Positions 1 to 62,300 are shown, counted from the first letter of the stretch. The stretch is 64,000 nucleotides of DNA from Bacilli bacterium (GCA_045601325.1 JAZRZI010000008.1:2961-66960), one strand, 5' to 3'. Notes: generated by a model not told the origin, from the letters alone. Numbers and translations are program-made.

Positions 1-74
1 GGGACATTGAAAAGTACTCTATCACACATGACAGAATAAATTCCACAGCTTAATCCCACTATTCTTCCTTGCAT
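1..74 (-). CDS. rsgA: Ribosome small-subunit biogenesis GTPase RsgA/CpgA; only the first ~24 codons are present, and the gene runs off the window start
   Basis: Minus-strand ATG at 72-74 overlaps the pknB stop. The translation MQGRIVGLSCGIYSV... resembles an RsgA N-terminus. The position after stp/pknB is conserved in Firmicutes. Confidence 0.5.
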   Translation of the reverse strand, partial: MQGRIVGLSCGIYSVMCDRVLFNV

Positions 75-26708: not shown

Positions 26709-27311
26709 ATGAACTTTGAATTAATACTAGCAACATCTAACAAACATAAAGTCCAAGAGGTAAGAAAAATATTATCTCCACACGGTATAATTGTATATGG
26801 TTTAAATGATTTAAACCTTAAACCAGAGGAAGTAATTGAAGATGGCGTTACTTATCAAGCTAACGCTCTAAAAAAGGCCCAAAGTGTGCAAAAACTAACT
26901 TCTATGCCAATCATCGCTGATGATTCAGGTATTGAAGTAGAAGCTTTAGATAATAAACCAGGTTTGCATTCTGCAAGATTTGCGGAAAGCGAAGGTGGCT
27001 ATATTAATGCGATGAATAAAATCATCAAAGCCACAAAAGACAAAAACAATAACAATGCAAGATTTGTTTGCGACATCGTTTTATTAAATGTTGACGAAAA
27101 ACCACTATTATTTGAAGGCATAGCTAACGGGCACATCAAAAATGAAATAATTGGTGATTCCGGATTTGGATATGACCCTATATTCTATTACGATGAATTA
27201 GGCAAAACTTTTGCAGAATTAACTGAAGATGAAAAAAATAAAGTCTCGCACAGAGCAAGAGCTTTAAAGAAATTATTAACTTATCTTAAGATTAATCAAT
27301 TAATCAAGTGA
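26709..27311 (+). CDS. rdgB: Non-canonical purine NTP pyrophosphatase (RdgB/HAM1)
   Basis: ILATSNKHK and FGYDPIF motifs. Confidence 0.85.
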   Translation: MNFELILATSNKHKVQEVRKILSPHGIIVYGLNDLNLKPEEVIEDGVTYQANALKKAQSVQKLTSMPIIADDSGIEVEALDNKPGLHSARFAESEGGYINAMNKIIKATKDKNNNNARFVCDIVLLNVDEKPLLFEGIANGHIKNEIIGDSGFGYDPIFYYDELGKTFAELTEDEKNKVSHRARALKKLLTYLKINQLIK

Positions 27312-28363
27312 CGATAACGTTTAAGAATAGTTTTAAATGCTAAGTGAAAAATCATACAGACTAATCCACCTAGTAAAAATACACCTGCGCCTATGAGAAA
27401 ATACATAGACCAGGTTTTTTCTTTAAAGAAAATGAATGAACAAATAAGACCGGCGGTAAATAAATAAAAGACAATAAATAATGGCAAAGAACCACGTGAT
27501 GCTTTGTAAATACCAATATTATTAGGGTAGATATTATTGGAAATAATTTTAATATGTTTTGCTTCTTCATCTAGTGTCGCGTTAACAACTTTAGTTGGGT
27601 TTCGTTTTGGCTCTTCATCGTTTCTTGCAATCATTGCCTTGCCTAATGCATTAAAACCAACGAATTTATAAGTAAAGCCTTCCATAGTTGGTTGTTTCTT
27701 TTCTAGATATCGTTTTGATTTTTCAACATCATCGATAATATCTTGGTGATATTTTTCTACTTCCTTGCTAACTGAATTAGGATCTAATTTTTGCATTGAA
27801 AGCTCATATAACGCTAATAAAGATTCTCTTGCCTTTAAAAGTTTGTGATTCTTCTCAAAATAGAGTTTTAAACAATCTGCGTCATAGAAATATGATCTAT
27901 ATGAAAGCTTCTTATAAACAAGATACTCGTATTCATCTAAACCAATAGAACATTTGTTCATAAATAAGAACAATGAGTTCAAGTCCGACATTTTAGAAAA
28001 ATAAGATGCGTAATCATTTCCTAACATTAAAGTAAATTCTTCAAATCTATCTCTTCTAAGAGTGGACATGTATAAGAGAGATAAAAGTCTACCGAATCTA
28101 GCTTCTATAGATTCTGGATCAAACGCTAAAATATTAGCAAACATTTCATATGCTTTACCATAATCTTTAACACCATAAAGAATCTTTTTTGCTTTAACAA
28201 CTTTGTTGTGAAGCATAGTTTCATAGTTAGAAATAGCTTCACCAGTGGTGAGTTCGGCCATACAATGAGGGCAATAACAAACCTTTGCAGAACTATTCAC
28301 ATCAAAAATTGCGTTGGTGAATTCTTCAGGATGACAATGTGTACAATAACCTTTTTTAAGACT
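27296..28363 (-). CDS. Hypothetical protein with an N-terminal zinc ribbon, a helical repeat region and a C-terminal double TM
   Basis: CTHCHPEEF...CYCPHC, with two hydrophobic helices at the C-terminus. No enzymatic motif found. Confidence 0.35.
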   Translation of the reverse strand, partial: SLKKGYCTHCHPEEFTNAIFDVNSSAKVCYCPHCMAELTTGEAISNYETMLHNKVVKAKKILYGVKDYGKAYEMFANILAFDPESIEARFGRLLSLLYMSTLRRDRFEEFTLMLGNDYASYFSKMSDLNSLFLFMNKCSIGLDEYEYLVYKKLSYRSYFYDADCLKLYFEKNHKLLKARESLLALYELSMQKLDPNSVSKEVEKYHQDIIDDVEKSKRYLEKKQPTMEGFTYKFVGFNALGKAMIARNDEEPKRNPTKVVNATLDEEAKHIKIISNNIYPNNIGIYKASRGSLPLFIVFYLFTAGLICSFIFFKEKTWSMYFLIGAGVFLLGGLVCMIFHLAFKTILKRYRHLIN

Positions 28364-28367
28364 CATA

Positions 28368-29054
28368 CTAAAATACCGGTGCAAAAACTATTAGACCATA
28401 AACGATAAGGAATTGGCCTACTAAATATGTAATCATGATTGGAAGATCTCTTCTTCTAAAATCATGGACGTAAGTTGAGATGATAACAAGCACATCACTG
28501 ATGAAGAATAAAACATAGCCCACTAATAACATAATGCTAGCAAAGAATTCATCTCCACCTTTAGGTGCATTCTTAATAACTAAATAAACTGTAGAACCAA
28601 TTAATGCGACTAAAAGAAACATATAGAAGTTTCCTTCTAATGTAGGTAATCCACACATTTTGTGATTGAAAATAAATAGAATTAAAGATAACGCAATAAT
28701 GACTCCAAATCCAATGAGATACATAGTCACATTAGTGCATTCAAGAATAAATCTATTAATTGCAAAGAAAAGACATAGGTGTCCAATTAAAAATAAAGTT
28801 GTTCCAATAAAATAACTTGTTTTCTTGTGAACTTTAATAAGGAAAAAGTCACCGACACACGCTAAATAGAAAGGAATATATACAAGCGGATTAGAAGGGA
28901 CAGCAATAGTTAACGCAACCGCTAAAAATAAAACGCAAAAAGGTTTAGTAAACTTTTTAAGTTTTTCTTTTTCGAATAAGCAGAACATAATGTGCACTAA
29001 GGCATATGCTCCGAATAGTGTGAATAGAATCAATATAGGCAATTCGAGTTTCAT
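28368..29054 (-). CDS. YhhN-family (lysoplasmalogenase-like) membrane protein
   Basis: Polytopic, with conserved GD, GH and SD positions (CVGDFFL, LIGHLCLF, FISDVLV). Confidence 0.5.
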   Translation of the reverse strand: MKLELPILILFTLFGAYALVHIMFCLFEKEKLKKFTKPFCVLFLAVALTIAVPSNPLVYIPFYLACVGDFFLIKVHKKTSYFIGTTLFLIGHLCLFFAINRFILECTNVTMYLIGFGVIIALSLILFIFNHKMCGLPTLEGNFYMFLLVALIGSTVYLVIKNAPKGGDEFFASIMLLVGYVLFFISDVLVIISTYVHDFRRRDLPIMITYLVGQFLIVYGLIVFAPVF

Positions 29055-33046: not shown

Positions 33047-34723
33047 ATGAAAAACGAACAAAATAACAATGTAAAAGTGCTATGCACAAAAAAGATTCAA
33101 CCTAAAAAAATTGAACCAACAACTAAAAATAAGAAGAAAAAGAAGAAACATATATTTGGAAAAATCCTCCTTACATTTTTCATCGTTTTTATTGTTTTAC
33201 CAATTGGTTTAGTCTATGCATTATGTTACACAAATAAATGGGAAGACATTAAAGCTACCGATGAGACCACTGAAGAAATATTTAATAGAATAAAAGTTGA
33301 TTCACTAGATTACTCAACATCCGCATATAATCCAAGAGTACAATTGAGATTAACTCAAGATGATTTGAATGGATTTTTAAAGCAATACACACAAGAATTC
33401 ACAACCGATAATCCTTTGATGAAATTTGTAAATAATTTCTATATCAAGATCGAGGACAACCAATACGAATTCGTTTTTGAAATAAAAACAAAAATTTTCT
33501 GTACAAAGCTAATCTTACAAGCTGAATTCCAAGAAATAGGTAATAGAGAAGATTACACAAAATCATATTTTGATTTTAAAATAAAAACATTAAAAGTTGG
33601 AAGATTATCAGGATTTGATGCATTGATTATCAAATTAGTAAATTCTGAAACAATCACATCTTTCTTTAATGATGCAGGCATAAGTGCACAAGTCGATTTA
33701 GAAAATAAAGAAATCAAATATTATGAAAAAGATTTAATCGAAGATATAAAGAAGCAAGAAGGCTTTGAAGATGATGATTTATACTTTTCTGTTGTCAATG
33801 ACGCTTTGCAAAGAAGAATGCTTAAGTTCGATTTTAACAGCGATAATTCGTTAACAGTTTCAGCATCTTTGAAAGATATGAAATATAACGATACTTATTG
33901 TGATCATAATAAGGAATTGGGTTACAACTTTTCCGAGAAAAGAGAAATGGTTGTTCAAGCCCTAAATGAAGGCATTATAAACGAAGATAACGCAGGAAAC
34001 TTATTTGATTATCTAATTCATGGTTATGAATTTGCTAAACAAGATAATACAGTTAGAATGCAATTTACAGGTGACATTTTTAAAACTCTTGGTATCGATG
34101 ATGTCGCAACATACGAAGGATATGAAAAAATCAGTATTTTAAACCATGATTATGCAACACTTGATAGCAGGATTGCAAATTCAGTAGATCCAACTAATTT
34201 AGCAACAGGTGGAGTCATTGCCTCGCTTAATGAAAATGACATTAATAACTTTATTCGTGCTTCTGAAATGATTGGCGTAAAATCTCTATTTATGAGAAAA
34301 ACAAGCGAAACAGAATGGAAAGCAAATTATGTTGCTATTAATGATTTCTATTGTGACATCGTAGATAATGGCGTCAATTATGTTGTAGGCATTGATATCA
34401 ATGGTTATAACACAGTTCTAAGTTTTGTCACTACTTTTGAAAATATTGAAGGTTATAAATTAAGTTTTAATACAGACAAAGTTTACTATGGCAATACAGA
34501 AGCAACCGAATCAATGAAAATTGTTATCTTAAGCATATTAGAAAGTGCAATTAACGCGGATGCCACTATGGGTGTTGAAATAGTAAATAACCATTTCATA
34601 TTTGATTTTGCTTCGGGTATTGAAGAAAGCGGGTATGGAAATTATATTGATCCATCGAGAGGAAGAATCGAAGTAAAAGATTCCACTGATGGCAATGGTA
34701 GAATTAATTTCCTACTGAATTAA
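33047..34723 (+). CDS. Membrane-anchored hypothetical protein with a Lys-rich cytoplasmic N-terminus and a large extracytoplasmic domain
   Basis: A poly-K stretch, a single N-terminal TM, and no recognisable motifs. Confidence 0.35.
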   Translation: MKNEQNNNVKVLCTKKIQPKKIEPTTKNKKKKKKHIFGKILLTFFIVFIVLPIGLVYALCYTNKWEDIKATDETTEEIFNRIKVDSLDYSTSAYNPRVQLRLTQDDLNGFLKQYTQEFTTDNPLMKFVNNFYIKIEDNQYEFVFEIKTKIFCTKLILQAEFQEIGNREDYTKSYFDFKIKTLKVGRLSGFDALIIKLVNSETITSFFNDAGISAQVDLENKEIKYYEKDLIEDIKKQEGFEDDDLYFSVVNDALQRRMLKFDFNSDNSLTVSASLKDMKYNDTYCDHNKELGYNFSEKREMVVQALNEGIINEDNAGNLFDYLIHGYEFAKQDNTVRMQFTGDIFKTLGIDDVATYEGYEKISILNHDYATLDSRIANSVDPTNLATGGVIASLNENDINNFIRASEMIGVKSLFMRKTSETEWKANYVAINDFYCDIVDNGVNYVVGIDINGYNTVLSFVTTFENIEGYKLSFNTDKVYYGNTEATESMKIVILSILESAINADATMGVEIVNNHFIFDFASGIEESGYGNYIDPSRGRIEVKDSTDGNGRINFLLN

Positions 34724-34744
34724 CCAGTTTTAACTGGTTTTTAT
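34723..34744. terminator. Bidirectional terminator between convergent genes
   Basis: ccagtt-tt-aactgg hairpin followed by TTTTT. Confidence 0.45.
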
Positions 34745-35520
34745 GAAATTTCTAAAAACTCAATTAGTTTTAAATTATATTTTTTTACTAGTTCGTACGC
34801 TTTATCAATGCGTTCATCAGGATTAAATATAAAACATGGATTATGAGCGTCTAAACCGATAATAACAGTGTTTCCAATTTCTCCAGCAATAGAGAAGAAC
34901 TCTTCGGAAGGATATGTCCTTTGGCTATCTCTAAACCATCCTCCAACATTAATTTCTAATGGAGTGTTTGTTTCTTTAGCTTTGATGCATATTCTTCTAA
35001 ACTGTTCTAATACATGTGGGGTAATATTTGTCGTCCAACAAATGAATAAATCAGGATGAGCGACATATGAAAATAAGCCAGTATCTAATCCTTGGCAAAT
35101 AAAGTCTGTATATTGAGTCATTTCTTCTTCGAGAACTTCATCTCCTAATATGTAATGTCTTTGACCGGTTGGTACAAATACGTCATGTTGACCCAAAATA
35201 AAATATTCAATTCCTATTTCCTTTAGATGCTTATAATGTTCTTCACATCCAGGAAGATATAATGCTTCTAAACCTATATGAATCTCAATTTGATCTTTAT
35301 ATTTATCTTTTAACTCCTTAAGTGAAGAAATATAGCCTTTGACGTATTCAATTCCACCATTTCCATTGTTGTACCATTCAAATTCAGAAATTTCTTCGTG
35401 ATCTGCAAAACCAAGCACCTTAATGCCAGCTTTAATAGCAGCTAAAACATACTCTTCATCTTTTCCTTGAGCATGCATGCACCTATATGTATGTGTGTGG
35501 TAATTTGCTTTTATATACAT
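34741..35520 (-). CDS. PHP-family phosphoesterase (histidinol-phosphatase HisK/HisJ-like)
   Basis: N-terminal HTHTxxxxH (NYHTHTYRCMHA) plus downstream His/Asp metal ligands. Confidence 0.65.
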   Translation of the reverse strand: MYIKANYHTHTYRCMHAQGKDEEYVLAAIKAGIKVLGFADHEEISEFEWYNNGNGGIEYVKGYISSLKELKDKYKDQIEIHIGLEALYLPGCEEHYKHLKEIGIEYFILGQHDVFVPTGQRHYILGDEVLEEEMTQYTDFICQGLDTGLFSYVAHPDLFICWTTNITPHVLEQFRRICIKAKETNTPLEINVGGWFRDSQRTYPSEEFFSIAGEIGNTVIIGLDAHNPCFIFNPDERIDKAYELVKKYNLKLIEFLEIS

Positions 35521-36146
35521 TAAATAACTTTCTTAAATTCCTTAAACCATTTATTTGCGATGACATCCGCACCAATTAGGTTGCTATGAACGCCATCATA
35601 CAAAACATAAGTATTGCCGTATTTTGCTGCGGCTTTATCTAGCTCACTTTGCAATTTCACAAAGTGACAATTAAATTCTTTTGCTAATTTCTTTGCACCT
35701 TTTGCGTATTTGTACACTAAAGAAAAGAGTTCTAAATTGCCTTCTGTTGCAGGGCCTTTAATAAAGAAAGGTTCGCAAACCATAATCTTTGTGTTAGGAA
35801 GTTTCTCCTTAAGATTTTTTAATAACTCACGGTAATTAGATAAATACTTGCGATATGAATTTCCATTATTAATAACATGATGCCAAACATCATTAACACC
35901 AATCATGATGCTAAGAACATCAGGATTTTTAGCCACTACATCTGTCTCATATCTTTTTAATAGCTCAGTAGTTCTATCTCCACCACAACCAACATTAATT
36001 GTTTCAATACATTGAGAATCATATTTCATTAACAATGTTGCTACTTGGAAAACATATCCATTCCCATAAGAAAATACTTTATCAACCTTTTCATCACGAG
36101 AGCGACACATATCTGTCAAAGAATCACCAAAAAATACAACTTTCAT
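35520..36146 (-). CDS. SGNH/GDSL-family hydrolase
   Basis: VVFFGDSLTD block I, GxND and DGVH blocks. Confidence 0.7.
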   Translation of the reverse strand: MKVVFFGDSLTDMCRSRDEKVDKVFSYGNGYVFQVATLLMKYDSQCIETINVGCGGDRTTELLKRYETDVVAKNPDVLSIMIGVNDVWHHVINNGNSYRKYLSNYRELLKNLKEKLPNTKIMVCEPFFIKGPATEGNLELFSLVYKYAKGAKKLAKEFNCHFVKLQSELDKAAAKYGNTYVLYDGVHSNLIGADVIANKWFKEFKKVI

Positions 36147-36147
36147 A

Positions 36148-37185
36148 CTATTTCACCATTTCATGTAATTTGTCTAAATTATCAAATATATCCTTAGCTA
36201 ATGTTAATTGAGTTCTGCATCTAACTAAGTTATGTTCATCAAATTTTGTGTGGAAATAAACATCTCCATCAAGATAGTCTGTTAAGAATCTAATACCACA
36301 TTCATATGTTAATAAGAATGCACTATAAGGTAGCAATTCTAACTCTCTTGGGGATAAGACAGTTCTCATTTCGCTTAAATATGCATTTGCGTAATTTTTA
36401 TATAACTCGTAATTAACTTTAAGTTTGGAAAGATCTCTACTATCTTCATTAGTGCCTGTGAACAAGCTTCTAAGAGCGTCGCCAAAGTCAAATAAATAAC
36501 TACCAGGCATAATAGTATCCAAATCGATAATACATCTAGCATCGTCTGTTTTAGCGTCAAATAATGCATTATTAATTTTAGGGTCATTATGGGTAATGCT
36601 TAGTGGAATGCTTCCATCTTGTAAACCAGACATAATCTTATCTATTTCTTTTTCATAAGATAACGCTAATTCAATTTCAGGCATACAAGTTGATTTACGT
36701 CCTTTAACATCCTTTGCAATACTTGCTAATAAATCTCTAAATCTTTTTGGAGTATTGTGAAAATTAGGAATTACTTCGTAAAGTTTGCTTGCATCAAAAT
36801 CTCTTAAGCATTTATGGAATTTACCATATGCGACCGCATCTTTGATTAATGTTTCTGTGTCGGTAACTTCCTCCAAAGTAACAGAGTTTTCTACAAAGTC
36901 ATATAAACGGAAGTATTTGTCACCTTCTTGATGATATAACTCATCTTTTAAAGTGCGAATAATCTTCAAAGATTCAATACCCTTCTTTTCCAAGTTAGAA
37001 GTGACATATTCAATGTTTGCCATTAATTCATCGACATTTTTAAATGCGACTGTATTAATTTGTTGAAGAATATATCTTCTTTTTGAAGTAACAACTAAAT
37101 ATGTTCTATTGATGTGACCATTTCCATATGGTTCGCAAGATAAAACATCACCTTCGATTTTAAATTGTTTGATAATATTTGCCAT
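36148..37185 (-). CDS. APH-family small-molecule kinase (N-acetylhexosamine kinase NahK- or MtnK-like)
   Basis: Nucleotide loop EPYGNGHINRTYLV, Brenner motif HNDPKINN and a DLD metal-binding motif. Confidence 0.6.
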   Translation of the reverse strand: MANIIKQFKIEGDVLSCEPYGNGHINRTYLVVTSKRRYILQQINTVAFKNVDELMANIEYVTSNLEKKGIESLKIIRTLKDELYHQEGDKYFRLYDFVENSVTLEEVTDTETLIKDAVAYGKFHKCLRDFDASKLYEVIPNFHNTPKRFRDLLASIAKDVKGRKSTCMPEIELALSYEKEIDKIMSGLQDGSIPLSITHNDPKINNALFDAKTDDARCIIDLDTIMPGSYLFDFGDALRSLFTGTNEDSRDLSKLKVNYELYKNYANAYLSEMRTVLSPRELELLPYSAFLLTYECGIRFLTDYLDGDVYFHTKFDEHNLVRCRTQLTLAKDIFDNLDKLHEMVK

Positions 37186-37256
37186 ATAATTCGTATTATT
37201 CAGTTAAGCCTAGTTTGATGACTGAATAACTTTCTCCTTTCTAGGCTATAATCCCC

Positions 37257-37937
37257 TTAACTATGTAAGTTTTCAAATAAAATTAAATCTTCCTTCGTCG
37301 TAATTTTGAAATTCAATTTGGAGCCATTAACTAAATACACAGGAATATTCAGTTTGCTTACTAATTGAGCGTCGTCGCTTGCGTCGCTATCCTTAAACAT
37401 TTCATGAGCTTTTTTAATTACTCCTAATTTAAACGTTTGAGGTGTTTGAGCTTGATAAAGTTCTTTTCTACTGCAAGTATCCGTCAAAGTATTTGCATTT
37501 GCGCTTTTAATAATTGTATCGGTTACAGGTATGACAGTTTCTACTGCGTCAAAAGTTTTACCAGCGATGATATTTTCATTGATAATCTCTTGAGATACAT
37601 TCGCTCTTGCAGCGTCATGAATTAATACCACATCATTATAATTAACCCCTAATGCTTCTAATGCACATAATCCATTATAAGATGATGCTTGTCTTGTATC
37701 TCCACCTACGAGAACGGCGTTAACCTTAGATAATCCAAATTCTTTCGCCCATTCTTTGACTTTTACTATGTAATCTCTCAAAGTCACCACAACAATCATG
37801 TCAATATTTTGGTTATTTTGAAAAGCCTCTAAAGTATAAATAAGAAGAGGTTTGTTATTTACTAATATGAATTGTTTGGGCGTGGATTCTTTCATTCTTG
37901 TTCCACTGCCAGAAGCTAAGACTAACGCGATATTCAT
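37257..37937 (-). CDS. IspD/TarI-family cytidylyltransferase
   Basis: ALVLASGSGTRM...PKQF signature. The upstream in-frame extension to 38039 is probably not translated. Confidence 0.7.
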   Translation of the reverse strand: MNIALVLASGSGTRMKESTPKQFILVNNKPLLIYTLEAFQNNQNIDMIVVVTLRDYIVKVKEWAKEFGLSKVNAVLVGGDTRQASSYNGLCALEALGVNYNDVVLIHDAARANVSQEIINENIIAGKTFDAVETVIPVTDTIIKSANANTLTDTCSRKELYQAQTPQTFKLGVIKKAHEMFKDSDASDDAQLVSKLNIPVYLVNGSKLNFKITTKEDLILFENLHS

Positions 37938-37945
37938 ACTTTTAA

Positions 37946-38749
37946 TTATTTGATATCCCTTTTTATAAAAGTGATCGTTCCAAGAATCGCAAACACAATT
38001 GCCCATCCTAAAGGACAAACAATAGAAGCGAGGAACCACGTTTGATTCATACCTCTACACATAGTAGATATAACTCCAAAACTAAATATAGGGTTTAGCC
38101 AACCTTGAATGCCGATAACAAACTCTTCTTCTTGTTTGCCGATATTTTCAAGTGTTGGAATAATTGCGAGAAATAATAGAAACACGATTGGGACAATAAC
38201 TAATGGCATCGAACCACCGATGTTTCTTGTAAGAGTGGCCATAAATATGGTGAAAGTAACAATAAAAACATATGTTGCTAGTGCCATAAGTGGGTATTGA
38301 TATAGTAGACTAGGTACAAATTGTCCTAATGTTGTGGAACCATTCTTGTCAAAACCACCAATAATTGAAGCGACACCAACTGATAAACCAAAATAAATTG
38401 TCATCAAAGAGATGGTGAAAATTAAGCCTATCAATAATAAAGAAAAGTAGATAGAACTCTTTTTGTGACCCGCAATAATCTTATTTCTAATCGTGCCACA
38501 ATTAAATTCACCAATAGTAAATACAATTAAATTAATAGGAACAGTTAATCCAAAGTTTTGAGTTGGAGACAAGCTGGAAATAAACATGTTTTGTCCATTA
38601 CATACGGCGCCGACATTGTCTCCAAGCAAATCAATGCCAAAATACACTAAGTTCATAAACACTGCTAAAGCAACGCCGATGATTAATGTGATTCTAAAAG
38701 TCCAGTCTTTAAATAACTTATAGAGAGCAGATTTAATGATATTAGCCAT
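37946..38749 (-). CDS. ABC-2 type transporter permease
   Basis: Six-TM profile. It overlaps the upstream ATPase gene. Confidence 0.6.
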   Translation of the reverse strand: MANIIKSALYKLFKDWTFRITLIIGVALAVFMNLVYFGIDLLGDNVGAVCNGQNMFISSLSPTQNFGLTVPINLIVFTIGEFNCGTIRNKIIAGHKKSSIYFSLLLIGLIFTISLMTIYFGLSVGVASIIGGFDKNGSTTLGQFVPSLLYQYPLMALATYVFIVTFTIFMATLTRNIGGSMPLVIVPIVFLLFLAIIPTLENIGKQEEEFVIGIQGWLNPIFSFGVISTMCRGMNQTWFLASIVCPLGWAIVFAILGTITFIKRDIK

Positions 38750-39653
38750 TATTACTACCTCCTATAAGATTAAGATAATAATCTTCAACATTTCCTTCAC
38801 GGGTGCGAATGTCTAAAACATCGAGACCGACTTTATGAAGTCTTTCTAGTAATTCTAAAGGAGTGACATCGTCAAAAACTCGAATATATGTCACATAGTT
38901 CTTATAATCTTTAAAACCTGCCTTTGCTAAAGCTACTTCAACTTCAGATAAATCTTGATGTTTAATGTCGATTGCTTTAATACAATCTTTTACTAAATCA
39001 TCAGCAGATATTTCTTTTAATAATTTACCTTTTTGGATGAAACCATAATGAGTTGCAACCTTTTCAAGTTCAGAAAGGATGTGAGAAGAAATTAAGAAAG
39101 TAATCCCTTGTTGATTTAAAGAGGTTATAAGATTTCTTAATTCCGCAATACCAGCAGGATCTAAACCATTCATAGGTTCATCAAGAAGCATAAGTTTAGG
39201 TTTATTTAAAAGCAAAACCGCGATACCTAAACGTTGTCTCATACCTAAAGAAAAGTTTTTAACTTTCTTTTTGCCAGTATCTGCTAGCTCAACATCTTTT
39301 AATACCTTATCAATAATTGAGAAATCCTTAACACCATAATACATACAAGCGAATTTTAGATTTTCTTTAGCGGTCATTGTAGGCACCAAAGAAGGAGCTT
39401 CAATAATGGCGGAAATGTTATTTCTAACTTTATATATTTTTGAATCTTTTGCATTAACATTAAACAAAGCATAAGTTCCATCATTAGGAATTGCTAAACC
39501 CATAAGCAAACGCATAATGGTTGTTTTACCACTACCATTTTCTCCAACAAATCCATATACAGAACCGAGTGGGACATGCATATTTACTTTGTTAACAGCT
39601 ACATTGGTACTATATTTTTTAGTAAGGTTATTTGTTACAATTGCGTATTCCAT
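38742..39653 (-). CDS. ABC transporter ATP-binding protein
   Basis: Walker A GENGSGKTT, signature FSLGMRQRL and Walker B LMLLDEP. The ATG at 39653 has an AGGAGG RBS; the track's extension to 39731 is AT-rich spacer. Confidence 0.85.
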   Translation of the reverse strand: MEYAIVTNNLTKKYSTNVAVNKVNMHVPLGSVYGFVGENGSGKTTIMRLLMGLAIPNDGTYALFNVNAKDSKIYKVRNNISAIIEAPSLVPTMTAKENLKFACMYYGVKDFSIIDKVLKDVELADTGKKKVKNFSLGMRQRLGIAVLLLNKPKLMLLDEPMNGLDPAGIAELRNLITSLNQQGITFLISSHILSELEKVATHYGFIQKGKLLKEISADDLVKDCIKAIDIKHQDLSEVEVALAKAGFKDYKNYVTYIRVFDDVTPLELLERLHKVGLDVLDIRTREGNVEDYYLNLIGGSNNG

Positions 39654-39758: not shown

Positions 39759-39850
39759 TGGCGGAGTAAGAGAGACTCGAACTCTCGCACCAGTTAACCC
39801 GATCTACGTCCTTAGCAGGGACGCCCCTTCACCAACTTGGGTATTACTCC
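39759..39850 (-). tRNA. tRNA-Ser (anticodon GCU), long variable arm
   Basis: The reverse complement folds as GGAGTAA.../...TTACTCC+G+CCA with anticodon loop CTGCTAA, 92 nt. A TATAAT lies ~11 nt upstream on the minus strand. Confidence 0.8.
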
Positions 39851-39900: not shown

Positions 39901-41337
39901 TTAATATGCCTTAGCAAATAAAACAACTTTTGTAGCTTTTTTGCCACATACTGGACAGGTGACATCAAAAGAAATTTGATTGAATGGAATGCATCTAGCA
40001 GTAGCGTTAGTCAATTCCTTAATCTTATCTTCACATTCTTGATCGCCACACCACATCATCTTAGCGTAGCCACCTTTTTCTAATGCAGCATTTAATTCTT
40101 CTAAGTTATGAATTTCTGTGACGTGATCTAATAAATATCTATATGCCTTTTCATACATTGCTTTGTGAATTTGTGGGATTAATTCATTAATCTTATCCAC
40201 CATTTCTTCTTTTTTAACAGTAATTTTTTCACCATTGTAACGTGTAGCAATAGTGACGTTTCCTGCTTCGATATCTCTAGGGCCAATTTCAATTCTTAAT
40301 GGAACGCCTTTCATTTCATATTCAGCAAACTTCCAACCAGGAGATTTATCAGATTCATCTAATTTAACTCTTAAGCCAGCATCTTTAATCATCTTAGCTA
40401 ATTCTCTAGCAGCAGGAATAACACCTGGTTTTTGTGCCGCTACAGGAATAACAACAGCTTGGATAGGTGCGACATATGGAGGTAAGGATAAACCATTATC
40501 GTCGCCGTGAACCATAATGATAGCGCCGAGTAATCTAGTAGAAACACCCCAAGATGTTTGATGTGGATGTGCTAATTTTCCATCTCTTCCTTGGAAGGTG
40601 ACACCAAAGGCTTCCGAGAAGCCAGTACCAAAATAGTGAGTTGTGCCAGATTGTAAACCTTTTCCGTCAGGCATTAAAGCTTCAATAGAATAAGTTTCCA
40701 TTGCCCCAGCAAATTTTTCTTTTTCAGTTTTTCTACCTTTAACGAAAGGAATAGCAAGTAAATCTCTGCCACAATCGTCATAGATTTCTAACATTCTTAA
40801 AGCTTCTGTTCTAGCTTCTTCTTCAGTTTCGTGCATTGTGTGGCCTTCTTGCCATAAGAATTCAGCACCTCTTAAGAATGGACGAGTTGTCTTTTCCCAT
40901 CTCACCACAGAACACCATTGGTTATAAAGTTTTGGTAAATCTCTATATGAAGAAATGATTTTTGCGTAATGTTCGGTGAATAATGTTTCACTCGTTGGAC
41001 GGATAATAAGTGGGTCTTCAATAGGAGCGCCACCACCAATATTTGCCACTAAGCATTCAGGTGCAAAGCCTTCAACGTGGTCCTTTTCTTTTTGAAGCAA
41101 AGATTCAGGAATAACAGTTGGCATGTAAACATTTTCATGACCAGTTTCTTTAAATTTCTTGTTCAAATATTCTTGAATTTGTTCCCAAATGGCATAACCA
41201 TAAGGTCTATAAATGATAAAGCCTTTAACAGAACTATAATCCATTAATTCAGCTTTTTTACAGACGTCAGTATACCATTGTGCAAAGTCATCTTCTTGAC
41301 GTGTAATGGAATCATTTTTAATTTGATTATTTCCCAT
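39901..41337 (-). CDS. proS: Prolyl-tRNA synthetase (archaeal/eukaryote-like form with a C-terminal zinc-binding domain)
   Basis: Class II aaRS motifs, no INS editing domain, and a C-terminal CPVCGKK zinc motif. 478 aa. Confidence 0.9.
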   Translation of the reverse strand: MGNNQIKNDSITRQEDDFAQWYTDVCKKAELMDYSSVKGFIIYRPYGYAIWEQIQEYLNKKFKETGHENVYMPTVIPESLLQKEKDHVEGFAPECLVANIGGGAPIEDPLIIRPTSETLFTEHYAKIISSYRDLPKLYNQWCSVVRWEKTTRPFLRGAEFLWQEGHTMHETEEEARTEALRMLEIYDDCGRDLLAIPFVKGRKTEKEKFAGAMETYSIEALMPDGKGLQSGTTHYFGTGFSEAFGVTFQGRDGKLAHPHQTSWGVSTRLLGAIIMVHGDDNGLSLPPYVAPIQAVVIPVAAQKPGVIPAARELAKMIKDAGLRVKLDESDKSPGWKFAEYEMKGVPLRIEIGPRDIEAGNVTIATRYNGEKITVKKEEMVDKINELIPQIHKAMYEKAYRYLLDHVTEIHNLEELNAALEKGGYAKMMWCGDQECEDKIKELTNATARCIPFNQISFDVTCPVCGKKATKVVLFAKAY

Positions 41338-41339
41338 AT

Positions 41340-43088
41340 TTATACTCTCCTTGACGCGACAATCGCGATATCGTTTAATTCTTTCATTCTCTTTTCGCTA
41401 ATAGGCATAACCATTTCGCTGCTAGGTCCATTAGTATCACTAGACACTAAGTTAATACCAGATTGGATAATGATATCCACGAAATGTCTAGTCGGTATGT
41501 CGGTAACAATAATCGGTTTATTGTATCTTTGTAAGCTAGCAATAATGCTGTAATAAGAATGGGTAATAGAATTCATTCTTTCTTTAGTCTTAATATTTAC
41601 TGCTTTGACCACAAAGTAATCAAACTCATTATTTATTTTACTGTCCAATAATAATGTTTTGTCGCTTATAGAAAGCGCCAAACCATAACCAAGATTATGC
41701 AACTCTTTTAATTTATTTACAACCAAATCTATCTCAGAAGCGTTATCGCAAACTTCCTGTTCATCAAATAAGAGGATTAAATCAATCTTATTGACAGTTT
41801 GAATTTGTGATAATACATTAGCGATATGGTCGGTAGCAAACATACTTGCTTCCACAAACAAAGATGCTCCATTTGTTCTATCGCTAGCACTGAATACAGG
41901 GACAATTTGACGTTCAATATAGTCCAGTAATTCTCTGCTTCTTCCATATTTAGAAGAGTATTTCATAATTTCATTGAAGTTATTAAAAATAACTTTTGAA
42001 CCATTAACATATGAGAAATATCCTAAAATACGTTTATTAAAGCAATCAACGATAGGTCTATATGTAATAGAAAGGTGTCCACCTTCTAAAATAGCATCGA
42101 TATTTTGAATGTAATTTTCACTTTGAAGTACGACTCTAGATGATTTATCAAATAGGAAGTAATCGCAATCAGTCAATTGTTGAGCATGAATGCTAACTTG
42201 TTCTGCTTTTTCTAATAAACTATTAAAATCATGGTAATATTGAGCGTTTTGGACAATGCCAACACCAAAGTGAATAGAGCTACCATTGGAATCTTTTCTA
42301 AGTTCTTTCTTAATAGCATCCACTATCGAAATAGCTAATTGAACAGCTTCATCACTGGATGCAATTTGCATATCAAATAAAACGAGTTCATTAGTGTTAA
42401 CCTCAAGAATCTTTCTATTTGCTCTTTTATGAGTGGCGAAAGAACAAATTGTGTATTTTAAACGAGTGTATAAATATTGTTCGGCAACATCGGTGACTGT
42501 AACTCTATTTCCTAAATAGGAAAAACGAATTGCAAATGTATATCCTTTTATGGACTTCATGGTGTCAAATTCGGATGAAATATCACTTCTTGAAACAATA
42601 CCCATATCGGATTTATTAGTTTTCTTTTTAGTTTCATAGTTTGAAATAGATGCTATGTGTTCACTTTGAAGAATAATCTTTCCGGTAAGCTTATCGTAGT
42701 TAACTACTTTTAATAAAGTACGCGTAGAATTCTTTCTGTTGTCATTTAAAACGTCAATTTCAAGGAAAGGAGAAACTTCGTTATTAGAAATCTTATCAAC
42801 CCATTCCTTAAGTTTTGTAACTTGAGATTCCACTGCTAAAGCGTAGAAGGAAGTTAAAGACATAGTTTGTTTGTTAGCTAGATCAGACAAGCTAAAAGTA
42901 GTAACTGAATTTTCTCGTTTATCAATGATGAAAATAGAATAACTTCTATTCTTAACAGAAACACTTTTGTTTTTTCTTCTTTCTAAACCACTACCAACAC
43001 CAAAAGATACAATCATTCCGAGTATGAAAAGAACCACCAATAAGGTAACAATAGCTAGGGTAAGAAATACAGGGTTAGTAAAATCCAT
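41340..43088 (-). CDS. Membrane-anchored protein with degenerate GGDEF-like and EAL-like domains (both catalytic signatures lost)
   Basis: N-terminal TM. The EAL-domain core YRPIVDC...ILGYFSYV is recognisable with EAL replaced by FSY and DDFG replaced by SISD. The GGDEF tail SIHFGVGIV is present, but the signature position reads NELVLF. Confidence 0.5.
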   Translation of the reverse strand: MDFTNPVFLTLAIVTLLVVLFILGMIVSFGVGSGLERRKNKSVSVKNRSYSIFIIDKRENSVTTFSLSDLANKQTMSLTSFYALAVESQVTKLKEWVDKISNNEVSPFLEIDVLNDNRKNSTRTLLKVVNYDKLTGKIILQSEHIASISNYETKKKTNKSDMGIVSRSDISSEFDTMKSIKGYTFAIRFSYLGNRVTVTDVAEQYLYTRLKYTICSFATHKRANRKILEVNTNELVLFDMQIASSDEAVQLAISIVDAIKKELRKDSNGSSIHFGVGIVQNAQYYHDFNSLLEKAEQVSIHAQQLTDCDYFLFDKSSRVVLQSENYIQNIDAILEGGHLSITYRPIVDCFNKRILGYFSYVNGSKVIFNNFNEIMKYSSKYGRSRELLDYIERQIVPVFSASDRTNGASLFVEASMFATDHIANVLSQIQTVNKIDLILLFDEQEVCDNASEIDLVVNKLKELHNLGYGLALSISDKTLLLDSKINNEFDYFVVKAVNIKTKERMNSITHSYYSIIASLQRYNKPIIVTDIPTRHFVDIIIQSGINLVSSDTNGPSSEMVMPISEKRMKELNDIAIVASRRV

Positions 43089-43299: not shown

Positions 43300-43592
43300 T
43301 ATATTTTAAAAAAATATGATAATCTAATTTAGTAAAGCTACGAAGGAAACAAGTACACTATTCCTCTGCTAGATAGAGATGACTCGGTTGGTGAAAGAGT
43401 TATAGCAAGAATTTGTGGAATACATTCTGGAGCTGCTTCCTGAAATTAAGTAGGGATAGACGGGTTAGCCCGATATAGCTAGATGTGCACTGCACACACT
43501 AAGGAATAACTCGTGAGGGTTATTTAAAATGAGGTGGTAACACGATACATTCGTCCTCTGTAAAGAGGACTTTTTATATTTTTAGGAGGGAA
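43300..43592 (+). promoter_or_regulatory. T-box riboswitch leader (Tyr specifier) controlling tyrS
   Basis: A UAC specifier candidate in AAGUACAC; the conserved T-box sequence aaTGAGGTGGtAACACG; a terminator cgtcctct-gtaa-agaggac followed by TTTTT, just upstream of the RBS aggaggg. Confidence 0.7.
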
Positions 43593-43596
43593 AAAT

Positions 43597-44814
43597 ATGG
43601 GCATTTATGAAGATCTTCAAGAAAGAGGTTTAATCGCTCAAGTTACCGATGAGAACGAAATTAAGGAATTAGTTAATAACGGAAAAGCTGTTTTCTATAT
43701 TGGCTTTGATCCAACCGCTGATAGTTTGCATGTTGGTCACTTTATGACATTAGTGTTGATGAAGAGATTACAAATGGCAGGCAATAGACCAATTGCTTTA
43801 TTAGGCGGTGGAACTGGTATGGTTGGTGACCCATCAGGTAGAACAGATATGAGAAAAATGTTAACTATTGAAGACATTGATCACAACTGTGACTGTTTTA
43901 AAAAGCAAATGGAAAAATTCATAGAATTCGGTCCAGGCAAAGCCATGATTATTAACAATGCTGAATGGTTAAGAAACCTTAACTATATTGATTTATTAAG
44001 AGACGTAGGTGCACATTTCTCAGTTAACAAAATGTTAACTGCTGAATGCTATAAGCAAAGAATGGAAAGAGGCTTATCCTTCTTAGAATTCAACTATATG
44101 ATTATGCAAAGCTATGACTTCTATTATTTGCATGAACATTATGGATGCAATATGGAATTCGGTGGCGATGACCAATGGAGTAATATGCTTGGTGGCACCG
44201 AATTAATTAGAAAGAAAACCGGCAAAGATGCATATGCATTAACAATTACTCTTTTATTAAATAGCGAAGGAAAGAAAATGGGCAAAACCGCTTCAGGTGC
44301 AGTTTGGTTAGATCCAAATAAAACATCTCCATTTGAATTCTTCCAATACTGGAGAAATGTTGATGACGGCGATGTGATTAAATGTATGAAACTTTTGACA
44401 TTTATTCCTATCCAAGAAATCAAGGAAATGGAAAGCTGGCCAGATAATAGAATTAACGAAAAGAAAGAGATTCTCGCATTTGAATTGACAAAGTTAGTTC
44501 ACGGTGAAGAAGAAGCTGCAAAAGCTAAAGTAGCAGCAAGAGCATTATTCTCTGGAGAAGGTGATGATAGCAATATGCCAACAACCGAACTCGAAAATGT
44601 TCCCGAAGAAGGAATTCAATTATTGAATATCATGGTCACTGCTGAATTAACTACATCTAGAGGTGAAGGAAGAAGACTCATTGAACAAGGTGGAGTTTCT
44701 GTTAATGGAGAAAAAATAAATAATCCAAATATCACAATTTCTAAAGCTCAATTAATGGAAGGAATTAAGATTAAAAAAGGTAAAAAAGTCTTCCACAAAG
44801 TTATTGCAAAATAG
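43597..44814 (+). CDS. tyrS: Tyrosyl-tRNA synthetase
   Basis: HIGH motif (HVGH), KMSKS (KMGKT), and a C-terminal S4-like domain. Confidence 0.9.
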   Translation: MGIYEDLQERGLIAQVTDENEIKELVNNGKAVFYIGFDPTADSLHVGHFMTLVLMKRLQMAGNRPIALLGGGTGMVGDPSGRTDMRKMLTIEDIDHNCDCFKKQMEKFIEFGPGKAMIINNAEWLRNLNYIDLLRDVGAHFSVNKMLTAECYKQRMERGLSFLEFNYMIMQSYDFYYLHEHYGCNMEFGGDDQWSNMLGGTELIRKKTGKDAYALTITLLLNSEGKKMGKTASGAVWLDPNKTSPFEFFQYWRNVDDGDVIKCMKLLTFIPIQEIKEMESWPDNRINEKKEILAFELTKLVHGEEEAAKAKVAARALFSGEGDDSNMPTTELENVPEEGIQLLNIMVTAELTTSRGEGRRLIEQGGVSVNGEKINNPNITISKAQLMEGIKIKKGKKVFHKVIAK

Positions 44815-58535: not shown

Positions 58536-59300
58536 TTATTTCTCTTCCTTCTCCCTTCTTGCTTTAAGATATGCACTTAGTTTCTTGTCAATCCATCTTG
58601 CAATTTTGAAGAGACAAGTAATGTAAACAATAAGACAAGCACCTAATACGAACCAGTTATAAACCTTATCAAAAGTAAATGGTAAGAATAAATCCTTTGG
58701 AATTAAAGACACTCCAAATACCACTGTGGCAATTCCAACAGCTTTACCAATTGCTCCATAAAGCATATGCAACCACCACTTCATTTTCATAGATCCTACA
58801 CATAGACAAATAAAGTCATCTGGGAATAGTGGAAGTAAATACATTATTGGAACATAAACCATACCTTTTTCATTGATTAGTTCTTTGGTCTTTTCGTATT
58901 CTTCCTTGCCAAATATCTTGATGATGAGTTTAGAGCCACCAAATCGACCTAAAGCATCAATGAAAATGTAAGAGAGAATACAACCACCAAATGTTGCTAA
59001 AAAGCACTTCCAATTTGCTCCAAATAATGCAATTCCTAGCCATACAAAGACACCACTACCAACCGGGTTCATACAAAGAAGTGTCGCTCCAATTGCTTCT
59101 GCTAGAACATAAACTATGTAAAGCATTGGGTTGTCTTTGAGTTCTTCAAACATAGCATTGTTAAAAACAAAGCCATTATCAAATTGAATTACACCAGTAA
59201 GATAGAAAATTAAGAAGAAAATACTACTTATTGCGATACCAATTGCTAAGACAATTAAGAGTTGAAGTAATTGCTTTTTATGATTCTTAAGCCATTTCAT
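58536..59300 (-). CDS. TVP38/TMEM64 (DedA-superfamily) membrane protein
   Basis: Polytopic. The LLPLFPDDFICLCVGSMKM segment matches the DedA/TVP38 re-entrant loop motif. Its start codon overlaps the stop of the giant upstream ORF by 1 nt. Confidence 0.55.
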   Translation of the reverse strand: MKWLKNHKKQLLQLLIVLAIGIAISSIFFLIFYLTGVIQFDNGFVFNNAMFEELKDNPMLYIVYVLAEAIGATLLCMNPVGSGVFVWLGIALFGANWKCFLATFGGCILSYIFIDALGRFGGSKLIIKIFGKEEYEKTKELINEKGMVYVPIMYLLPLFPDDFICLCVGSMKMKWWLHMLYGAIGKAVGIATVVFGVSLIPKDLFLPFTFDKVYNWFVLGACLIVYITCLFKIARWIDKKLSAYLKARREKEEK

Positions 59301-62300
59301 TAGTCTTTCACTCCAACATATGTTAAGGCATCTTTGTGACTTGCTCCCTTACTCATCAAGAAAGAGATAAGTGTTTTTTGAGAGTTCCCGGTTACTGAAT
59401 ACCCAGCAAGATACATAAGTAAAACTTTCTCTTGTTTAGACATTTGAAGTTTATTTATGTAATCAATAACTAATTCTTTTCTACTCTTCTTCTTTGTTTC
59501 AGTAATAGAACCAGTCTTTTGTAAGATTGAAATATATTTAGCAAGTTCGACATTGCCATTGGTTAAAACAAGTAAGTTTTCAAGTTTTGATGAACCACTA
59601 CTACCAATTGCTCTTGCTTTAGCAAAACCATAATAGGCATTATAAACGCTTGAAATGAGTTTGGCTTTTTCTTCGCTTGTAGCAACTCTATACTCTGGTG
59701 TATTCATCACTTTAACAACTTGATTTTCACTTTGTTGATATAGTTTCTTAAATTGAGTAATTTGAGCCGCAGTGAGTTGAATTTGATTACCATTATCATC
59801 AGTGTAGGCAGTAGGAATACTTCTTGGAATAGCATTATAACCTTGAGATGAAAGTATAACTAATTCAGCATTGATTTGGTCATTAGTTACTCCACCTTTG
59901 AACTCACTGACCATATAGGAAAGATATGCTTGTGCGGACTTTGTGTCTCCACTTTCAATATATTGGTTATAGGATTTGGTTAAACCATTAACAGTAGAAG
60001 CATAGAAAATATTATTGAATTTCAAAGCTGCTTCCGAATCAATGAGTTTGGTAATTCCATAGATATACTTTTTGATTTCATCAATTGGAAGCCCTGTAAG
60101 ACCTTCAAGAATAGAAATTAAACCAGTTAATAATGCACCACTAACTTTACCTTCTACAATAGAAGAATAAATATTATGTGCCACTTGTCCTAAGTCGTTG
60201 AGCATAGAAATGCTTGGAGCATCAATCTCATAACCATTCAAGACAGTGCCAGTGAGAGTTCCAACAACAGGAATCCAATTTAAGAATGAGTTAGTAGCAA
60301 CTGTTGTAAGTATTTCTTCTGCTTTGTATTCGCTAAATTTCTTCTTACCATAGAGGAAGTTAGCGAGCATACCAACAGCGGTGACAGCAATACCATTGAT
60401 AATCATCTTAGCAAGGATATTAAGAGGTATTCTCTTACCACCACTAAACTTATATTGTTTATAACCATCACTCTTGTTTTGTTGAGTTTTGGCTTCACCA
60501 TTGGCTTTATATTCTTCTTCACGAGCATTATTAAGATTTTCTTTAAGTGTCTTATTAGTTGCTCTTTGTTCATTGACTTTTGCTCTTGCTTCAGCAATTA
60601 AACCGTTGATATCTTCTTCAACTGAAGTATCAGCAAATTGACCTTCATCTCCATTGATCCAAGCAACTTTATTGAGTTCAATTTCTTTTGAATAAATTTT
60701 CGAGCCTTGTCCACCAGCATATTCTTCGGCTTGTATTTTACTTGTTGAAACAAATGTTCCTTGTTCAATCTCTTTTGAAGAATAAATAGTTATTTTTCCA
60801 CTTTCAAGTGCTTTTTGTGCGTCTTCTCTTGAGAAATCTCCCCAAGCAAATTGACCTTCTTTTTCATCATTCAAAGCAAGGACTTCTTCCCAAGTTTTAA
60901 TATCTTCAACCTTACGGATACCTACATGATATGAGTCTTCCATTGGGTTATATTTATTAACAATACCAAGTTGTTGTTCTTTCTTATTATTAAGCAAATT
61001 ATCTCTTTCTTCTCTTAAAGTGTCGAGTTGTTTGAGACCATTGTTGTATGCTTCTTCAGCTTTAGAAGTAACCTTTTGTGCTTCTTCATACTTAGCAAGT
61101 GCATTTTCTAAATCTGCTTTTAATTGAGCCTCATCAACATTGTGGAATTGATGATATAAAGAACCTTGAACAGCATATGAAGCAACATTCGCTCTCATAG
61201 CACCAGCAAGGACATTGAAAGTCATTCTTGTAATTGCATTATCATTGAGCAAGTTTTGATGAAGTGGAGTAGAACCAACATTAAGCATATTGTATAAAGA
61301 ATACATATCTCTAACATATTGCTTACCTTCAACACTATTAACGTCAACACCATTCTTCAAACAATCATTGACTATGTCTAAAAGACCACTATCCATAGCG
61401 AGTTTATCCCAAAACTTAACCGGAGACATAACTATGGATTGTATCTTTCCACTAATACCACTAAATGTTGTAGGAGCATTACCTTTTAAGAGTTCTTGTG
61501 AAGCACTACGATATTTGAGTTCAGGTATTACTTCATCAATAAGCATATGAGCTGCTTCTCTAACTTCTTTACCATATTTGCTTAATTTAACCATTTTGGC
61601 TAAATCAATATTGGAAGTTGTATGTGATAAGTAGTTCTTAACACTTCTAATAGGAGAAGAAATCTTACTTGTAGCATAACCACTCATAAATAGAGCAGTT
61701 GTTTTTGTGATGAAGTTTTGACTTTCTGGGTTTTTAATAATCCATTGATCAGTGATATCGGTAAGATATTTGAGTTCATTTCTTCCATACTTTTCACTAA
61801 TGTGTTGAGCAACTGAAATACCATTACTGTCTTTACTATTAAGTAAGGCATAAAAATCATGAACCGCTGGTTTAAGATAAATTTGTTGACCAATTCTTTT
61901 AATATAGTCACCAATCTCGTCCATGATATCAACGACACCTAAAGCACTTAAGTCTTCAGTTCTCTTTAATCCATATCTAAAGGAAGGGTCACCAATAACC
62001 CTTTTATCAATAGAGGTTTGGAAATAAGAATCTTTATGTAATGTGGAATAGTCTTTAACTAAGTCAACATCAACATATCCACTTTCTTTTTTGAAATCAA
62101 CAAACTTACTTTGTAAGTATTCATTGATAACTTTATAGTGCAAGTTTTCAGCAAGTTTAATGGTTTCTGGTGTCATTAAGGCATCAATATCAGCTTTTAA
62201 TTGTTCCAAGTGACCTTCGCCTTGATAGAACCATACTGGTCTACCTTGTTTGTCTTCGGTGTGATAACCACCATAGTTAATATTTTCAGCATTAACTGGA

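Follow-up and report, generated by a model that had tools for sequence, protein, structure and literature searches.

An N-acetylhexosamine 1-kinase gene beside a TarI-like cytidylyltransferase gene in a Bacilli bacterium: a six-gene string read as a composite of separate units

Six open reading frames (ORFs) form one string at positions 34741-39653 on the minus strand of a 64,000-nucleotide DNA stretch from a Bacilli bacterium (GCA_045601325.1 JAZRZI010000008.1:2961-66960; this whole stretch is called the window below). In transcription order they encode an ABC ATPase, an ABC-2-type permease, a cytidylyltransferase of the IspD/TarI family, an N-acetylhexosamine 1-kinase (NahK), an SGNH/GDSL esterase and a PHP phosphoesterase. 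An earlier note on this DNA had combined them into one operon for a route in which a small molecule is phosphorylated, then activated with cytidine monophosphate (CMP) and then exported. The string is interpreted here, with confidence somewhat above even, as a composite of separate, possibly co-transcribed units and not as one pathway. Comparative support for the route was lacking, and the chemistry speaks against it: a kinase of the NahK type would yield an anomeric sugar 1-phosphate, not the alditol-type phosphate that characterised IspD/TarI enzymes use.

The neighbourhood of the kinase and transferase genes is not conserved. NahK genes were collected by profile-guided scans of genomes and metagenomes, among the matches listed, and hand-picked Bacilli contigs were added. 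The resulting census comprises 165 loci (152 distinct at 95% amino acid identity, 2.0 Mb of DNA), mostly from Clostridia and Bifidobacterium at 39-52% identity, and all counts of NahK loci given in this text refer to it. Partner families were sought in these loci by tblastn and by a separate hidden Markov model for each family. In none of the 165 loci does an IspD-family gene adjoin nahK. A single locus has such a gene within 10 kb, at a distance of 9.2 kb; there is also one weak match to IspD at the family level (E 3e-9), 3.1 kb from nahK. The SGNH family is represented in two loci, at 1.8 and 3.2 kb from nahK, and the PHP family in two; the permease is found in 0 of 165. The absence of a conserved neighbourhood had been named in advance as an outcome speaking against the route, and this is what the census gave.

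Seen from the side of the transferase, the result is the same. Its five closest homologues with readable genomic context (51-56% identity) all adjoin a gene for LicD and/or for a reductase of the TarJ type or of the short-chain dehydrogenase/reductase (SDR) type. The arrangements are LicD-TarI-TarJ (the TarJ being an alcohol dehydrogenase), LicD-TarI or SDR-TarI, which match the logic of cytidine diphosphate (CDP)-ribitol synthesis as known for TarI/TarJ and Bcs1. Neither NahK nor the ABC pair is present at any of these five loci. Both a NahK homologue (P0003) and an IspD-like homologue (P0217) were found in sample SRR29834476; the latter belongs to a LicD-TarI-TarJ cluster, and no IspD-family gene occurs within 8 kb of the P0003 nahK. 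Among the closest Bacilli NahK genes (50-57% identity), which were sampled singly, the neighbours differ in each case. One locus with ProS 2 kb from NahK (L137) was considered as shared synteny and rejected, because it belongs to an organism of 52% GC with a different gene order.

The kinase (36148-37185, minus strand, 345 residues) is classified from its sequence as a clear relative of NahK and a predicted anomeric 1-kinase of N-acetylglucosamine (GlcNAc) and N-acetylgalactosamine (GalNAc). It matches Bifidobacterium longum NahK (LnpB; PDB 4wh1/4ocj) over the full length with E 5e-101, and 161 of 331 residues (49%) are identical in a gapless alignment. The catalytic loop HNDPKINN (H199-N206) and the stretch DLDTIMPGS (D221-T224 being DLDT) show no variation among 42 aligned homologues, the window protein included, and the HNDxKxNN and metal-binding DLDT motifs align with those of the B. 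longum enzyme. NahK adds a phosphate to the anomeric C1 of GlcNAc and GalNAc, producing the sugar 1-phosphate (PMC8106489, citing Nishimoto and Kitaoka 2007). Of the Pfam models, APH is matched at 3.8e-19 and Choline_kinase stays below its cut-off (20.4 vs 29 bits); the homoserine-kinase and CotS models of Pfam and NCBIfam score far under theirs. The placement beside NahK anticipated in the earlier note is thus confirmed. Clustering of the kinase with drug phosphotransferases was another outcome named in advance as contrary to the route, and it was not observed: the closest aminoglycoside phosphotransferase structure gives E 0.13, and the kinase is NahK-like, not an aminoglycoside/macrolide phosphotransferase. 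The nearest homologue is 57% identical, and an exact-peptide search of GTDB genomes returned no close relative. Three homologues outside the window (P0017, P0034 and P0037) are NUDIX-NahK fusions of about 500 residues, which tie NahK to nucleotide-sugar or nucleotide metabolism.

Two known kinase systems could be compared with this gene. The galacto-N-biose and lacto-N-biose (GNB/LNB) pathway of B. longum (lnpABCD) contains the full-length homologue that keeps both motifs; the window differs from it in lacking, by tblastn, the GH112 phosphorylase, GalT and a GalE-like gene, and nahK stands there among unrelated genes. The pairing of choline kinase with CTP:phosphocholine cytidylyltransferase (LicA/LicC) resembles the window in that a kinase of the APH fold adjoins an enzyme of the cytidylyltransferase fold. 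However, the window kinase is a NahK, and LicC (1jyk) is only a remote match of the transferase (8e-5 over 52 residues). A choline route of the LicA/LicC type, which had served as a precedent for the proposed pathway, is therefore not upheld, given also the Choline_kinase score.

A candidate partner enzyme that could activate the product of NahK is found elsewhere, and it belongs to a different family. All ORFs within 5 kb of nahK in the listed loci were clustered into neighbour families. The most frequent is a nucleotidyltransferase (NTase) of about 300 residues, present at 43 loci, followed by sugar ABC permeases (27 and 23 loci), a GalE-like epimerase and AraC regulators (20 loci each), NagB and GH112 lacto-N-biose phosphorylase (17 each), NagA (12) and GalT (8). 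The NTase immediately adjoins nahK on the same strand at 41 loci, directly upstream at 38, with gaps of -15 to 139 nucleotides. Where at least 900 bp of upstream DNA is available, it is directly upstream in 37 of 137 loci (27%). The pair occurs in 41 distinct NahK groups, and examples are provided by L159:1225-2154, by L001, L007 and L098 and by about 38 further loci, often with a GalE-like epimerase alongside. The sole close PDB relative of the NTase, 3pnn (E 7e-78), comes from structural genomics and is without a name; the only Pfam match of the NTase, to NTP_transf_3, is sub-threshold. No other family with an NTase signature occupies the slot upstream of nahK in any listed locus. This two-gene module is conserved, apparently uncharacterised and widespread in gut Clostridia, and it probably provides a direct salvage route from GlcNAc or GalNAc to uridine diphosphate (UDP)-N-acetylhexosamine (HexNAc). 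Judged from these sequences, phosphorylation followed by nucleotide activation is a real theme for NahK, with an enzyme family other than that of the window. The literature search found nothing relevant on a NahK-nucleotidyltransferase operon or on NahK in Mollicutes. None of the usual partners (3pnn-like NTase, GH112, GalE-like, NagA/NagB, GalT, sugar ABC) is found in the window.

The transferase (37257-37937, minus strand, 226 residues) is assigned by sequence comparison to the IspD/TarI family, as the earlier note had it (Pfam IspD, 5e-52). It is most likely of the TarI type and would then produce CDP-ribitol or another CDP-alditol; the genomic context of its closest homologues, given above, speaks most strongly for this. 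It passes the NCBIfam subfamily model for ribitol-5-phosphate cytidylyltransferase (NF001183, 182.6 vs 166), and its best PDB sequence match is Staphylococcus aureus TarI (6xhp, 1.6e-36), followed by Bacillus subtilis TarI, a Listeria TarI-like protein and then Thermotoga IspD. The AlphaFold model (predicted local distance difference test, pLDDT, 94) has its best fold match in S. aureus TarI (6xhs, template modelling (TM) score 0.94). The ATG at 37937 is taken as the start, in agreement with the N-termini of 119 homologues. A start at the GTG at 38039, or the 249-residue call of the source record (P0121), is probably too long and would run into the permease gene.

The transferase could alternatively be a genuine IspD of the methylerythritol phosphate (MEP) pathway, a housekeeping gene that happens to lie between a transporter and NahK. 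The NCBIfam ispD equivalog-domain model TIGR00453 is indeed passed (195.9 vs a cut-off of 181.3). In sequence and in fold, the IspD enzymes of Thermotoga and B. subtilis fall only slightly behind TarI, with TM scores of about 0.9 for the IspD structures. A relative carries a lone ispF (YgbB; L087:13607-14080) 5 kb from a LicD-TarI-TarJ cluster with no ispD beside it, which hints at one enzyme serving in both roles. Nevertheless, this explanation appears unlikely. Both full-length IspD equivalog models are failed (NF001186, 180/253; NF009924, 157.7/342), the best matches in sequence and in structure are TarI, and all five closest homologues with context are linked to LicD or a reductase. Two motifs, AVETVI..DTI (AV[DE]TVI..DTI) and YQAQTPQTF (YQxQTPQxF), are common to the transferase and four aligned TarI-type chains, and the single IspD aligned, that of Thermotoga, differs at both. 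Moreover, no other MEP gene is found among the annotated ORFs of the 64-kb window. Compared with the TarI/TarJ systems of S. aureus, Streptococcus pneumoniae and B. subtilis W23 and the LicD-TarI-TarJ clusters of uncultured Bacilli, the window transferase is nearest to TarI; it differs in having no TarJ-type reductase or LicD nearby and in reading RAN where they have RP[LF].

This last difference belongs to several points that weigh against a composite of separate units. Residues 108-114 of the transferase (37596-37616, minus strand) read HDAARAN in place of HDxxRP[LF]. Among the 119 homologues the Pro of HDxxRPL is conserved in 98% and the Leu in 99%, and RPF is present in all five of the best PDB relatives; of 84 columns with a conservation of 90% or more, the transferase departs from the consensus at 9. 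The conserved Arg of the family motif, beside this site, contacts the substrate in IspD structures. LicD and TarJ homologues, the expected partners of such a transferase, are absent from the 64-kb window. Furthermore, the IspD-like gene holds the very slot, upstream of nahK and on the same strand, that the partner NTase occupies elsewhere. Since the NTase is in that slot in 37 of 137 loci, the adjacency in the window could be meaningful. The window proteins all formed singleton clusters, save for a 52-residue fragment grouped with the ATPase, and the databases hold no close relative of the source organism, the nearest homologues being 48-58% identical. Finally, for esterase and phosphatase alike, the assigned role is only an inference.

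These points could be gathered into another explanation, according to which an IspD/TarI-family enzyme has displaced the usual NTase of NahK and makes a CDP-sugar or another nucleoside diphosphate sugar, while the esterase, phosphatase and exporter process or export the resulting head group or glycoconjugate. It draws on the conserved NTase-NahK module, on the IspD-like gene filling the same slot at a distance of 71 nucleotides with no terminator between, on HDAARAN at a near-invariant site and on the missing TarJ and LicD. It is nonetheless improbable, in view of the census and of the empty record of other NTase-signature families in the slot. The nearest homologues of the transferase (51-58% identity) are LicD/TarJ-linked, and the motifs shared with TarI are kept. 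Divergence is not accelerated either: identity to the nearest homologue is 58% for the transferase, 57% for NahK and 48% each for the PHP and SGNH proteins. The transferase gene is coupled more closely to the permease gene (8 nucleotides) than to nahK (71 nucleotides), and the ABC pair does not resemble TagGH. The substrates of characterised IspD/TarI enzymes are non-anomeric phosphates of the alditol type, and we know of no IspD-family enzyme that uses an anomeric sugar 1-phosphate. The 3pnn-like NTase, for its part, resembles the transferase in standing directly upstream of the kinase, but the two families share no significant similarity.

The composite reading treats the ABC ATPase (38742-39653, minus strand, 303 residues; Pfam ABC_tran 1.3e-30) and the ABC-2-type permease (37946-38749, minus strand, 267 residues, integral membrane) as a unit of their own. 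Start of the ATPase gene is the ATG at 39653, with AAGGAGG upstream. The ATPase scores best in NCBIfam against the lantibiotic-protection ATPase model TIGR03740 (233.6 bits, under the cut-off of 309.75) and also, below cut-off, against TIGR01188 (DrrA); no TagH model is among its best 25. The permease has a sub-threshold Pfam match only (ABC2_membrane_2, E 8e-4, 19.2 vs 27.2 bits), no NCBIfam family and no PDB sequence relative, and homologues of it are absent from 174 loci fetched. On this sequence evidence the pair resembles drug or lantibiotic-protection exporters, and nothing links it to glycopolymer export. It differs from TagGH/TarGH in that the ATPase is not of the TagH type and the permease is without a TagG-type match. 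The proposal of an ABC-2 exporter for a head group or a teichoic-like polymer is consequently not supported.

An explanation that joins the exporter to the transferase should be considered at this point. ATPase, permease and TarI could form an envelope-decoration unit in which CDP-ribitol is made and a glycolipid or polymer bearing ribitol phosphate is exported; a separate sugar-salvage unit would then consist of NahK, SGNH and PHP. The junctions within the first three genes (an 8-nucleotide overlap and an 8-nucleotide gap) agree with it, and in other bacteria teichoic acids and further glycopolymers are transported by ABC-2 exporters such as TarGH. The probability assigned to it is low: an ABC pair does not adjoin the transferase gene at any of the five IspD-like loci, the best-scoring models of the ATPase are those for lantibiotic protection and DrrA, the permease reaches ABC2_membrane_2 below threshold only, and tight junctions are little informative in this genome. 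It is unlikely, too, that an IspD/TarI enzyme was recruited as the partner of NahK, with the change of RP[LF] to RAN marking a switch to HexNAc-1-phosphate and a CDP-HexNAc-type donor being made for the surface glycolipids of wall-less Bacilli.

The SGNH/GDSL esterase (35520-36146, minus strand, 208 residues; Pfam Lipase_GDSL_2 1.8e-24) contains all four blocks, GDSLTD, GCGGD, GVNDV and DGVHSN, and its translation has no signal peptide. Its best named PDB relative is the acetyl xylan esterase of Geobacillus (3w7v/5bn1, 2e-24). The best guess is a cytoplasmic carbohydrate O-acetyl esterase similar to Axe2. Axe2 of Geobacillus stearothermophilus, listed in PDB as an acetyl xylan esterase, is likewise an SGNH protein of about 210 residues without a signal peptide, and is known as an intracellular esterase of acetylated xylooligosaccharides; unlike in that case, no xylan-utilisation genes surround the SGNH gene of the window. 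In homologues of the SGNH protein (P0461, P0368, P0399 and P0485) the fusion partners are a ROK sugar kinase, GH127, amidohydrolase_2 and a domain of the beta-lactamase fold.

The PHP phosphoesterase (34741-35520, minus strand, 259 residues; Pfam PHP 3.9e-12) passes the loose HisJ-family model of NCBIfam (TIGR01856, 93.2/90.2) and matches histidinol phosphatase in PDB (2yxo, 3e-16). An identity as HisJ of the histidine pathway was rejected: the HisJ equivalog is failed (NF005996, 65.8/133), and his genes are absent from all four homologue contexts examined. These contexts are ROK-PHP-PMI, TMEM164-YhhN-PHP, ACP-PHP and PHP-acyl-ACP-thioesterase-NahK (ACP, acyl carrier protein). Homologues, among them P0313, P0248, L060:8266-9824, L171 and L172, often adjoin lipid genes (acyl-ACP thioesterase, ACP, YhhN, TMEM164), and fusions with membrane domains of the GtrA-like or YgjV-like kind occur. 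Phosphates associated with the membrane are possible targets of the HisJ subgroup to which the protein belongs; as substrates, sugar phosphates and membrane- or lipid-linked phosphates are equally likely. A sugar-phosphate phosphatase feeding NahK in the manner of MupP was also considered; it stayed speculative, because sugar contexts are no more frequent among the homologues than contexts with lipid, ACP, thioesterase and YhhN genes. The AmgK/MurU/MupP salvage pathway is similar to the string in combining an anomeric amino-sugar kinase and a nucleotidyltransferase with a phosphatase nearby. It differs in that the window transferase is of the IspD/TarI family (MurU model, 18.9/250); moreover, MupP is a phosphatase of the HAD family, and the window phosphatase is PHP. 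The SGNH and PHP proteins, which had been included in the head-group route, thus have variable contexts elsewhere and are not conserved partners of NahK.

The layout of the string agrees exactly with the earlier note in its coordinates, in the minus strand of all six ORFs and in the junctions, and Pfam and NCBIfam bear out the family labels given there (APH/NahK-like kinase, IspD/TarI, SGNH, PHP and ABC-2). The ATPase and permease genes overlap by 8 nucleotides, the permease and transferase genes are 8 nucleotides apart, nahK and the SGNH gene are separated by 1 nucleotide, and the SGNH and PHP genes overlap by 1 nucleotide. On either side of a single spacer of 71 nucleotides (37186-37256, minus strand), between the transferase gene and nahK, three genes are tightly packed: ATPase-permease-transferase before it and kinase-esterase-phosphatase after it. 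As read, this spacer contains no terminator-like site, its sole promoter-like match is 9/12, no Rfam family is matched, its fold is no more stable than that of shuffled sequences (z = -0.06), and no recognisable Shine-Dalgarno sequence directly precedes the nahK ATG. Since no terminator is found within the string, co-transcription is plausible, and the six genes are probably read together. Of the operon proposed earlier, this part is plausible; the single pathway is not supported, the neighbourhood being unconserved.

The tight packing itself is uninformative about function. Same-strand junctions of 10 nucleotides or fewer are the rule across the window (about 32% GC, strongly strand-biased), and they are found between unrelated genes too, such as RNase J and Maf, NAD kinase and an EIIB-like ORF, or amine oxidase and amidohydrolase. 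The surrounding genes are housekeeping ones: ATP synthase, tRNA synthetases, PriA, Gmk, GlpK and CoaD. Upstream neighbours of the string are the gene for prolyl-tRNA synthetase, ProS (39901-41337, minus strand; Pfam tRNA-synt_2b, HGTP_anticodon and ProRS-C_1), and tRNA-Ser with the anticodon GCU (39759-39850, minus strand; ARAGORN, Rfam tRNA 56.5 bits). Between tRNA-Ser and the ATPase gene, 3' of the tRNA, is a terminator-like hairpin (39747-39720, minus strand; a 12-pair stem with 3 G-C pairs), followed by the T-run TTTTTAAT. This suggests that transcription of proS and the tRNA does not simply continue into the string.

According to the composite reading, the units could operate as follows. 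The ABC ATPase and the ABC-2 permease would form an exporter of the drug or peptide type. The TarI-type enzyme would supply a LicD-type phosphotransferase, whose gene lies elsewhere, with a CDP-alditol, most likely CDP-ribitol. NahK would phosphorylate free GlcNAc or GalNAc at C1, and the HexNAc-1-phosphate could be converted by a sugar-1-phosphate uridylyltransferase encoded elsewhere (GlmU or a 3pnn-like enzyme) to UDP-HexNAc, a presumed salvage destination. The Axe2-like O-acetyl esterase, acting inside the cell, could plausibly deacetylate imported sugars ahead of phosphorylation. The HisJ-family PHP phosphoesterase would constitute the fifth unit.

Several other features of the window were observed. 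A T-box leader (43331-43561, plus strand, 118.8 bits) lies ahead of the tyrosyl-tRNA synthetase gene (43597-44814). Convergent on the PHP gene is a Lys-rich ORF of 558 residues with a hydrophobic N-terminus (33047-34723, plus strand) and no clear family, and no clear family could be given either for an ORF of 362 residues (27296-28384, minus strand). A membrane protein of 582 residues (41340-43088, minus strand) has a sub-threshold EAL match only, and an ORF of 1535 residues (59300-63907, minus strand) has no Pfam match at E <= 1e-5. In the region 74-1709 (minus strand), the Ser/Thr protein kinase is only 310 residues long; Pfam gives no PASTA match for it, and its partners are a PP2C phosphatase and RlmN. 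These features would fit a Bacilli lineage that is reduced and possibly wall-less. The source genome is that of a compact, strand-biased, low-GC member of the Bacilli, Mollicutes-like in character.

The main value of the string is cautionary. Touching or overlapping genes are the default in compact, strand-biased genomes, and for this reason a kinase gene adjoining a cytidylyltransferase gene is no evidence of a pathway. Each of the six genes adds a new member to a known family, from a lineage without a close sequenced relative. Two side results possibly outweigh the original finding, namely the NTase-NahK module and a TarI-like enzyme with an alteration in a normally invariant motif of the substrate loop. 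If this enzyme had indeed been recruited as the partner of NahK, anomeric sugar phosphates would have to be added to the substrates of the IspD family.

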